From NCBI RefSeq assembly GCF_003334255.1, contig NZ_QOWU01000024.1: 64,000 nucleotides of DNA; one strand, 5' to 3'. This document shows positions 24,050-25,160 of this stretch, in pieces. The notes beneath the pieces are model-generated. The model did no database searches and had not been told where the DNA came from. It worked only from the letters and a program-made list of their open reading frames with translations. A program made the translations under genes and the position numbers. This DNA comes from Escherichia coli (GTDB taxonomy: Bacteria; Pseudomonadota; Gammaproteobacteria; Enterobacterales; Enterobacteriaceae). How positions within the stretch are numbered: the stretch's first letter is position 1; every line of letters begins with the position of its first letter.

Positions 24050-24952
24050 TCAAAAACTCTCATTTAGACGGTCAATAAATCGGGAGAACACCAAATTATT
24101 TAAAGAAGATTTATTATAGGAAATGTAAAGCTTTATTGAAGGTAACGGATGTTCTAGTTTTATCTCTTTTAAGTTAAGAAAGTCACGGTAGGAATTATAA
24201 AGTTCATAGGGGACTATTCCCAGTAAATCTGTAACTGCAATGCTATTAATGATTGTCAGCAAAGAGGAACCACGAAATGAGATTTTGCGATTCATAAATC
24301 TCTCGTCTATTTCCATTTGAATATCATCAACCCCTGCTGATTTAGATATTAATTGGGTGAACTCTTCTGCCATAATTTGTTCATAAGTGCTATTGTCAGT
24401 AATTCGTGGATGCCTATTACTACAAATTAGAGTATTGCGAATCGTATGCAATGGCATGCAAATGACGGAACGGCTGATCACTGGCATTTGGGTGATCACC
24501 AGATCGGCTTTGCGGTGAACCAACAGTTCTTCAGCATTCTCTGCTGACATGAGGATATCATGGCACTCAATCTCGACAGAGGAATCTTGCCGTAGGCAGC
24601 GGATCAGCATACTATTATTAGAGCAAGAAATGAGCTGAGGGCCGTAGATAATAAAGTTTTTCTTTAGTTCGGACTTATTGACTATATTAATTGTTTGTTC
24701 AAGGCCTCTGAGATTTTTCTCAAGATGGTGATGCAGATTTAACCCTGTTGTCGTCGGCGCGATACCTTTTCCTGAGCGAATGAATAAAGGGTCATTAAAT
24801 TGCGCACGTAAGCGTTGTAACGACTGGCTCACGGCTGATGGGGTGATATATAGTGATTCAGCAGCTTTGCTAATGCTTAAATGCTGGTAAATACACTCAA
24901 ATATGACAAGAAGATTTAAGTCGAACTTTTTCAAGTCGTAGAGATTGGCCAT
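24050..24952 (-). CDS. ybdO: LysR-type transcriptional regulator
   Basis: 300-aa ORF with N-terminal helix-turn-helix (ISKAAESLYITPSAVSQSLQRLR); conspicuously AT-rich coding sequence. Confidence 0.8.
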   Translation of the reverse strand: MANLYDLKKFDLNLLVIFECIYQHLSISKAAESLYITPSAVSQSLQRLRAQFNDPLFIRSGKGIAPTTTGLNLHHHLEKNLRGLEQTINIVNKSELKKNFIIYGPQLISCSNNSMLIRCLRQDSSVEIECHDILMSAENAEELLVHRKADLVITQMPVISRSVICMPLHTIRNTLICSNRHPRITDNSTYEQIMAEEFTQLISKSAGVDDIQMEIDERFMNRKISFRGSSLLTIINSIAVTDLLGIVPYELYNSYRDFLNLKEIKLEHPLPSIKLYISYNKSSLNNLVFSRFIDRLNESF

Positions 24953-25160
24953 ACACTACTCCGGTTATATTTTTCTTCCATGATATATTCACTTAATCAA
25001 TGTTTTTTGCGTATATATTTTTATTGATTATGTTTTTTTGCTTAACTCAGGATTAAGTTTTTCTAAAATAGCACAGCCACTTAGGGCAGAGCGAGCAATT
25101 CATGCTTTTTTAGGATGGTTGAAAAGCAGGGATATAGTTCAACCATCCATGAATTACCTT

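Follow-up and report, generated by a model that had tools for sequence, protein, structure and literature searches.

The enterobacterial gene leuO is AT-rich and silenced by H-NS, and rfb, fliC, hsd and fim are E. coli loci at which recombination exchanges deeply divergent alleles. YbdO, the transcription factor considered here, belongs to the same LysR family as LeuO and YbeF, its closest NCBIfam neighbours, and ybeF, which lies in the 64-kb stretch of DNA that we analysed (the window; 64,000 nucleotides), is AT-rich too. YbdO differs from both in having a separate locus and targets of its own (ybdNM, the cit genes and the kps promoter); YbeF is 30% identical to it. With rfb, fliC, hsd and fim the ybdO gene shares sharp divergent blocks, conflict between allele and flank trees and lineage-specific breakpoints, but it encodes a cytoplasmic transcription factor, not a surface or restriction determinant, and its dN/dS is 0.03. 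Like the ybdO block, classical genomic islands deviate in composition, are patchily distributed among genera and are silenced by H-NS. However, islands have an integrase, a tRNA gene and direct repeats, whereas the ybdO block has none of these and is one gene long; unlike islands, ybdO appears to be exchanged via homologous recombination in the flanking genes. What ybdO has in common with the H-NS-silenced bgl and proU is that its promoter and the 5' part of its coding region are AT-rich, that H-NS occupies it, that it is derepressed in hns mutants, and that an upstream element (URE) is paired with a downstream element (DRE) (PMC4720273). From H-NS xenogeneic silencing it does not differ at all, since ybdO is itself a published case.

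Much of the regulation has been described. Higashi et al. (2016; PMC4720273) chose ybdO as their test case of an H-NS-bound, horizontally transferred gene. H-NS occupied its upstream and coding regions by ChAP-seq in K-12, SE11 and SE15, and ybdO-lac (lacZ) fusions were derepressed in an hns mutant. Repression required both the upstream (-250 to -176) and the downstream (+27 to +164) element, and the K-12 DRE also holds an H-NS-independent negative element. EMSA demonstrated H-NS on the ybdO promoter, with acid pH relieving repression; by qRT-PCR the gene is derepressed 2.2-2.4-fold without hns, and YbdO directly activates the K1 capsule promoter, kps (PMC9141747). ChIP-exo placed CitR at its own promoter, with ybdNM repressed and a citrate-related phenotype (PMC9068703). 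A preliminary description of this DNA, made from the sequence alone, had proposed that ybdO is silenced by H-NS. Because binding and repression are both published (PMC4720273, PMC9141747), that proposal is correct and already known, and an AT-rich, H-NS-silenced ybdO as such adds nothing to the literature.

The explanation that we favour, with a probability of roughly 0.8, joins an H-NS-silenced citR/ybdO, long resident in a variable interval, to an AT-richness that is maintained and a K-12-type allele that was imported. H-NS would coat the AT-rich, xenogeneic-type DNA of the gene, its promoter and the intergenic region on either side, binding the upstream element and the element inside the coding sequence, and probably bridging them. 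H-NS would keep the promoter at basal level until stationary phase or acid pH lifts repression; CitR/YbdO would then bind its own promoter region, repress the adjacent ybdNM operon and, in K1 strains, activate the capsule genes. These steps of silencing, relief and CitR regulation are published and taken from the literature. The evolutionary steps would be that ybdO is an old resident of the variable ybdL-ahpC interval, from which ybdMN, ybdO and dsbG were lost independently by lineage, and that AT-richness follows the gene across genera as a maintained property and not as a fading donor signature. The ancestor of the K-12, O157 and STEC lineages would have received a block of about 1.4 kb, donated by an Escherichia-like lineage as yet unsampled, in place of the ancestral allele that ExPEC-type strains have kept.

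The ybdO region matches E. coli C and K-12-type chromosomes with 100% identity, and there RefSeq lists citR (= ybdO) between ybdN and dsbG, and this match to an annotated locus bears out the gene names given in the preliminary description. It was found in 5,423 of 5,426 complete E. coli genomes. YbdO scores 467.5 bits against the NCBIfam CitR equivalog NF047710.1 and so passes the cutoff of 400, with the next families below theirs (YbeF, 165.5 against 277; LeuO, 104.7 against 262). Both LysR domains, HTH_1 (PF00126) and LysR_substrate (PF03466), are present in precomputed assignments for 98-99% identical proteins and likewise on the ybdO orthologues of the fetched contigs. PADLOC gave weak partial matches on YbdM, YbdN, YbdO and DsbG (DndC/BrxP PAPS-reductase domains and the N-terminus of a methyltransferase), from which no defence system could be assigned. 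An Rfam scan of 23600-26300 returned nothing in the ybdO block and a single match, STnc70, in the dsbG-ahpC spacer. Scanning for promoter and terminator consensus sequences gave chance-level matches and missed the published ybdO promoter. Features are collected in Table 1.

Table 1. Features of the ybdO locus, in window coordinates.
Feature	Position	Strand	Basis or remark
citR/ybdO CDS, LysR-type transcription factor, 300 aa	24050-24952	-	ORF, RefSeq citR, NCBIfam, Pfam
dsbG-ybdO intergenic region with ybdO promoter, GC 0.322	24953-25160	-	composition, sequence
ybdO TSS, 107 bp upstream of ATG	~25059	-	PMC4720273, coordinates inferred by conversion
TATTTT, -10-like hexamer	25065-25070	-	reading of the sequence at the published TSS
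URE, H-NS-dependent, -250 to -176, overlapping dsbG 3' end	25128-25202	-	PMC4720273 deletion mapping, coordinates converted
DRE, H-NS-dependent, +27 to +164, within ybdO CDS	24789-24926	-	PMC4720273, coordinates converted
ybdO-ybdN intergenic region, GC 0.342, holding the ybdNM promoter region	23904-24049	-	composition, sequence, PMC9068703
hyper-divergent block: ybdN 5' end, intergenic region, ybdO, promoter	23650-25110	unspecified	identity profile, dS
allele-shared patch inside ybdO (HTH end and linker)	24650-24800	-	identity profile, pS by codon
ybdN, PAPS-reductase-like (IbrA-like), GC 0.476	22683-23903	-	
ybdM, ParB_N/IbrB-like, GC 0.468, stop directly abutting ybdL stop	22081-22710	-	
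dsbG, GC 0.467	25161-25907	-	variably present in ybdL-ahpC interval across genera

Computed composition confirms what the preliminary description had judged by eye, that the ybdO region is far more AT-rich than its surroundings. GC is 0.374 at 24050-25160 and 0.517 over the whole window, which places this segment in the bottom 0.5% of all 1111-bp windows of the stretch; the minimum, 0.364, belongs to an overlapping 1111-bp window starting at 23951. In the sliding profile the trough (0.32-0.43) runs from about 23850 to 25200, so that the block extends leftwards beyond 24050 across the ybdO-ybdN intergenic region. The ORF itself has a GC of 0.386, low at all three codon positions (GC1/GC2/GC3 0.435/0.326/0.399), and both intergenic regions lie below it (0.342 at 23904-24049; 0.322 at 24953-25160). 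Among the 59 genes of the window, placed by blastn against E. coli C, none is lower in GC (z = -3.1) or GC3 (z = -2.5) than ybdO, which also scores lowest on an index of codon typicality referenced to the pooled codon usage of the window (z = -2.5). The sliding-window and codon-usage check suggested earlier thus put 24050-25160 outside the normal range. The AT-rich anomaly is real and beyond chance fluctuation, and high AT over several hundred base pairs, promoter included, is the composition of H-NS-silenced DNA. The contrast with GC-balanced neighbours, as first drawn, was right for ahpC (0.500) and ybdL (0.538) but not for dsbG, which at 0.467 is moderately low, like ybdM (0.468) and ybdN (0.476). 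The sharp anomaly is ybdO with its two intergenic regions; the ybdMNO set is not the unit. With at most 2 mismatches allowed, the high-affinity H-NS consensus TCGATAAATT occurs 66 times in the window, where 58 ± 8 occurrences are expected, and is neither enriched nor clustered in the block; this 10-bp motif is dispensable for H-NS binding.

Within E. coli, the gene exists in two main forms. When 23904-25160 was compared with the window allele across complete E. coli genomes, 3,567 were at least 95% identical and 1,774 fell at 60-80%, the majority near 78-80%; just 16 of about 5,360 were intermediate. Neighbouring ybdL reached at least 95% identity in 5,289 of 5,420 genomes. The window carries the K-12-type allele (K-12, O157, STEC) and the other main form is the ExPEC type, allele types having been assigned to lineages from a few named strains. 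The two alleles diverge at about 21% of nucleotides and 11-12% of amino acids. Against UPEC U15A and KKa019, the flanks are 95-100% identical, and identity drops to 0.66-0.81 only at about 23650-25110, a stretch that coincides with the AT-rich block. For U15A this amounts to 311 differences in 1500 bp (23650-25149), compared with 59 in 1400 bp across the rest of 23000-25899. Between types, ybdO has a pS of 0.71, a dN of 0.066, a dN/dS of 0.03 and a dS of about 2.2; synonymous distances above about 0.7 are near saturation, so that deep allele splits can be dated relative to one another only roughly. In the flanks of K-12-type and ExPEC-type genomes dS is 0.08-0.28. The HTH domain of YbdO (aa 1-85) is almost invariant between alleles, and the differences sit in the effector domain.

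Comparisons within each type give a different picture. Between K-12 and O157:H7, pS is 0.036 in ybdO and 0.03-0.12 in the flanks; between U15A and KKa019, both of the ExPEC type, the values are 0.13 and 0.09-0.21. Because ybdO diverges within types as its flanks do, it shows no intrinsic rate increase. Flank and within-type comparisons together span a dS of 0.04-0.28, and set against about 2.2 between types this range indicates replacement by recombination. As a divergent Escherichia outgroup we used L002, which is labelled E. coli and is about 90-92% identical over 20 kb. The ExPEC type lies at a pS of 0.42-0.45 from it in ybdO and 0.19-0.47 in the flanks. The K-12 type is at a pS of about 0.7 from the ExPEC type and the outgroup alike, and the flanks at 0.05-0.25 within E. 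coli, so that gene and flank trees conflict. On these distances the ExPEC-type allele behaves as vertically inherited and the K-12-type allele is the outlier; most likely homologous recombination swapped in about 1.4 kb as a block. Gene and flanks disagree again in a rare third E. coli allele (L084) and in Escherichia L089, which carry other divergent alleles with breakpoints of their own, reaching ybdM/ybdN or dsbG. Inside ybdO, the patch at 24650-24800 is flank-like between the two types; by codon it extends over about 43-105, to about 24826. Accordingly, pS is 1.0 over codons 1-40, 0.31 over codons 41-92 and 0.76 over codons 93-300. A near-identical patch within the gene makes the divergent block a mosaic. 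The search for a donor of the K-12-type allele yielded none, and among the protein matches listed all those at least 98% identical were E. coli. With no donor found, the data fit an ancient balanced polymorphism no less well than they fit a recent import of the K-12-type allele.

We next considered whether low GC is a relic of a donor. In every genus the ybdO orthologue has a lower GC than its neighbours, by about 0.05-0.20 and mostly by 0.1-0.15, and the GC3 deficit across five genera is 0.05-0.28, mostly 0.1-0.2. In Escherichia and Citrobacter GC3 is 0.30-0.42 for ybdO and 0.42-0.60 for its neighbours; in Enterobacter and Leclercia the corresponding values are 0.52-0.57 and 0.55-0.75, GC3 of ybdO rising with host GC across genera. 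Intergeneric synonymous sites are saturated (pS 0.84-0.88). The deficit has therefore outlasted full synonymous turnover, and AT-richness is not readable as a leftover donor signature. The pattern fits a maintained local equilibrium, due either to selection for H-NS control or to a local mutational regime; it does not fit an import that has yet to ameliorate. AT-richness alone neither dates nor proves acquisition of ybdO. The idea that this is ancient, acquired accessory DNA keeps its footing in the distribution of the locus genes, which are non-universal and found in several genera, but loses AT-richness as a mark of the donor.

It is possible, though in our view unlikely, that no horizontal transfer was involved and that ybdO is a native paralogue of the LeuO/YbeF group that became AT-rich in place, through AT-biased mutation while silent and weakly expressed or through selection for H-NS control. 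YbeF and LeuO are indeed its nearest families; ybeF, encoded 23 kb away in the same window and 30% identical in its product, has the third lowest GC of the window's genes (0.449); the GC offset is stable across genera; and the best 120 protein matches include no homologue from beyond the Enterobacteriaceae. Strong purifying selection on ybdO (dN/dS 0.03-0.1) speaks against it, however, since relaxed constraint does not then explain the AT-richness, as does the absence of the gene from this locus in many Enterobacteriaceae. Moreover, replacement of whole alleles with distinct breakpoints means that ybdO moves horizontally, at least between related lineages. A native paralogue is compatible with maintained AT-richness and differs from the explanation we favour only on ultimate origin.

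To place the gene among its relatives, loci were anchored on AhpC, taking one genome per species, and E. coli proteins were mapped by tblastn, giving 14 Enterobacteriaceae loci with ybdL near ahpC. Seven of the 14 contain ybdO (eight loci counting the window, in four genera) and seven lack it. The interval holds ybdM-N-O-dsbG in Escherichia and Citrobacter; ybdM-N-O without dsbG in Enterobacter asburiae and Superficieibacter (L007, L015); ybdM-N-dsbG without ybdO in RIT691 (L009); ybdO alone with a 49-aa dsbG remnant in Leclercia (L012); dsbG alone, about 40 bp from ybdL, in Enterobacter sp. Bisph1 and a soil MAG (L004, L008); only an M-like gene in BIGb0383 (L014); an MFS transporter in Mangrovibacter and a MAG; and nothing in another MAG, where it measures 370 bp (L010). 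The locus genes thus occur in Escherichia, Citrobacter, Enterobacter, Leclercia and Superficieibacter and are not universal in the Enterobacteriaceae, a patchy distribution at a conserved locus with alternative cargo in two cases. The ybdO block keeps its position and orientation across genera, and ybdN mostly co-occurs with ybdO, yet is separable from it. Because ybdMN, ybdO and dsbG vary independently, dsbG is part of the variable set and not a fixed core boundary. For Salmonella, a published gene-order table has ybdO adjoining dsbG with the sRNA STnc3180 between them; no Salmonella YbdO is among the best 120 protein matches, so its presence there rests on that table. With the locus genes non-universal and the composition deviant, the preliminary description stands on these two counts.

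In a neighbour-joining tree of the flanks (YbdL, AhpC and AhpF, three locus genes in a sparse, arbitrary species sample), sites that are partial or empty branch among the full ones. Together with the Leclercia dsbG remnant, this favours secondary losses over pre-insertion states, and it suggests that the locus genes were present before the Escherichia-Enterobacter-Superficieibacter split and then repeatedly lost. The comparison of the ybdL-dsbG junction had been proposed as a check on insertion; sites without ybdMNO do exist, but nested as they are they look like losses. The preliminary description had ybdM, ybdN and ybdO entering as a single cassette between ybdL and dsbG, with AT-richness as the un-ameliorated composition of the donor. 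We regard this as distinctly improbable; GC (0.47/0.48/0.39 for M/N/O) and the separate gain and loss of the genes speak against a single insertion. The three genes do occur together in Escherichia, Citrobacter, Enterobacter asburiae and Superficieibacter, the two sites with ybdL and dsbG about 40 bp apart resemble an empty site, and CitR regulates ybdNM, which makes the three a functional unit. However, ybdM and ybdN (0.47-0.48) are close to dsbG (0.467), and only ybdO and the intergenic regions reach 0.32-0.39. The modules come apart, as RIT691, Leclercia, Enterobacter asburiae and Superficieibacter illustrate; the "empty" sites lie inside gene-carrying clades and, with the Leclercia remnant, point to deletions; and a GC3 deficit that survives synonymous turnover and tracks host GC is not what slow amelioration predicts. 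Nor were insertion scars found in 21800-26400, where we saw two short, imperfect, chance-level pairs of direct repeats and zero inverted repeats. The block has no integrase, tRNA gene or flanking direct repeats, and its annotated neighbours are all housekeeping or y-genes. What varies as a unit is ybdO alone with its intergenic regions, rather than ybdMNO.

That the divergence of ybdO in E. coli reflects locally accelerated substitution in H-NS-bound DNA without recombination, the reading of PMC4720273, is very improbable: the divergent block does match the AT-rich, H-NS-bound block, H-NS-bound genes as a class are more diverse, and a test of tree compatibility detected no excess transfer in that class (PMC4720273; this recombination control was an aggregate one, with none specific to ybdO), but synonymous divergence of ybdO equals that of the flanks both within types and when the ExPEC type is set against the outgroup Escherichia, the genomes fall into two main types with those few intermediates, a 150-bp patch inside the gene sits at flank-level divergence, breakpoints differ in the other divergent alleles, and a roughly tenfold burst on one short stem branch at a dN/dS of 0.03 would be hard to achieve by mutation alone. 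Given within-type rates equal to flank rates, we reject hyper-substitution in situ as the cause of the between-type divergence.

The published claim that the ybdO sequence has diversified can thus be read in another way, as replacement of the allele. This is a modest refinement, with the K-12-type copy resembling a foreign version that was swapped in, and it awaits confirmation at population scale. In the literature searched we found no other description of the two-form structure. As the two main alleles track major lineages, the structure matters when studies in K-12 are compared with those in K1 or APEC. A further, tentative possibility is that ybdO is a long-standing hot spot of allele exchange, with several deeply diverged alleles, alike in an almost constant DNA-binding domain but with effector domains that diverge fast, being swapped between lineages via homologous recombination in the flanks and retained by selection, and with different signals or regulons; the K-12/O157-type allele may be tied to citrate and ybdNM, and the ExPEC-type allele to the K1 capsule. 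If so, the flagship example of H-NS accelerating substitution (PMC4720273) would really be an introgression, and the K-12 "CitR" and K1/APEC "YbdO" results would concern proteins differing at 11-12% of residues. Insertion sequences have also acted on the locus, IS1 and IS5 being present in some strains as secondary insertions only. The rare E. coli genomes without ybdO lost it through IS elements, as in strain EC05 with an ISKpn26-associated deletion, and several E. coli strains carry IS1 within ybdO.

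The dsbG and ybdO genes of an Escherichia genome with divergent alleles, L089 (Logan SRR8068135), are much more diverged from E. coli than the genes that surround them. Relative to E. coli, dsbG of this genome reaches a pS of 0.60 with a pN of 0.052, compared with a pS of 0.165 for the neighboring ybdL and 0.206 for ahpF. The nearest match to its ybdO is the allele of E. albertii. At the proposed ybdO hot spot, the dsbG-ybdO segment thus resembles another replacement block, larger than the first. IS1 insertions inside ybdO are recurrent, and were found in unrelated strains with both of the main E. 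coli allele types, the K-12 type and the ExPEC type (E. coli genomes H2, H3, H11, H26, and H46, and L093). In another strain, EC05, an IS5-like ISKpn26 element has deleted ybdO together with the 3' end of dsbG.

The adjacent ybdM and ybdN genes encode an IbrB-like protein with a ParB_N domain and an IbrA-like protein of the PAPS-reductase type, respectively. In PADLOC the pair had only weak hits, which were to DndC, BrxP, and a methyltransferase N-terminus. Because ybdN is broken into two ORFs in L084, an E. coli genome with a third ybdO allele, and ybdM is frameshifted in EC05, occasional decay of the pair is suggested. In the window, ybeM falls 1 bp short of the 789 bp that the intact gene has in E. 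coli C and is therefore frameshifted, in agreement with the known ybeM pseudogene of K-12.

Features in and around the ybdO region (window positions unless stated)
Feature	Position	Strand	Remark
dsbG and ybdO divergent block	4045-5903 of L089
fepE	5588-6721		AT-rich trough, GC 0.450
ybdM and ybdN	22081-23903
Promoter-like site	25042-25069	+	Consensus scan, whose matches were at chance level
Hairpin, perfect 11-bp stem	25113-25147		Just 3' of the dsbG stop codon, within the ybdO upstream region
STnc70, enterobacterial sRNA	26041-26134	+	Rfam match, dsbG-ahpC spacer
ybdR, alcohol dehydrogenase gene	29422-30660		29200-30800 with its flanks
citC-dpiB divergent spacer	38541-40200		AT-rich trough, GC 0.404
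dcuC-pagP-cspE region	42721-44900		AT-rich trough, minimum GC 0.372
ybeM	45365-46152		Frameshifted
ybeF	47759-48712		Closest ybdO paralogue, 30% identity

Comparison of strains and genomes also revealed ybdR as a presence/absence polymorphism. Besides the window, E. coli C and O157:H7 carry it, and it is missing from U15A, KKa019, WL297, HSP60, E. albertii, and the divergent Escherichia outgroup L002; in genomes that lack it, yldA/rnk comes immediately after uspG. In two short spacers, cstA-ybdD (19284-19580) and ahpC-ahpF (26776-26930), identity among E. coli strains falls to 0.46-0.63 because spacer lengths differ, the latter being 244 bp in the window versus 170 bp in U15A. Both spacers probably contain insertions of the REP/BIME type.

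On the other side of ahpC, the STnc70 match scored 42.7 bits against a gathering score of 40. The hairpin downstream of dsbG had no match in Rfam. In Salmonella, a published gene-order table places the sRNA STnc3180 between ybdO and dsbG on the opposite strand, and the hairpin could be a candidate E. coli counterpart.

Several other parts of the window are AT-rich. The GC content of ybeF, 0.449, is the third lowest among the 59 window genes, and the gene lies within a further low-GC trough at approximately 47970-49200. The minimum of the dcuC-pagP-cspE trough is nearly as low as that of ybdO.
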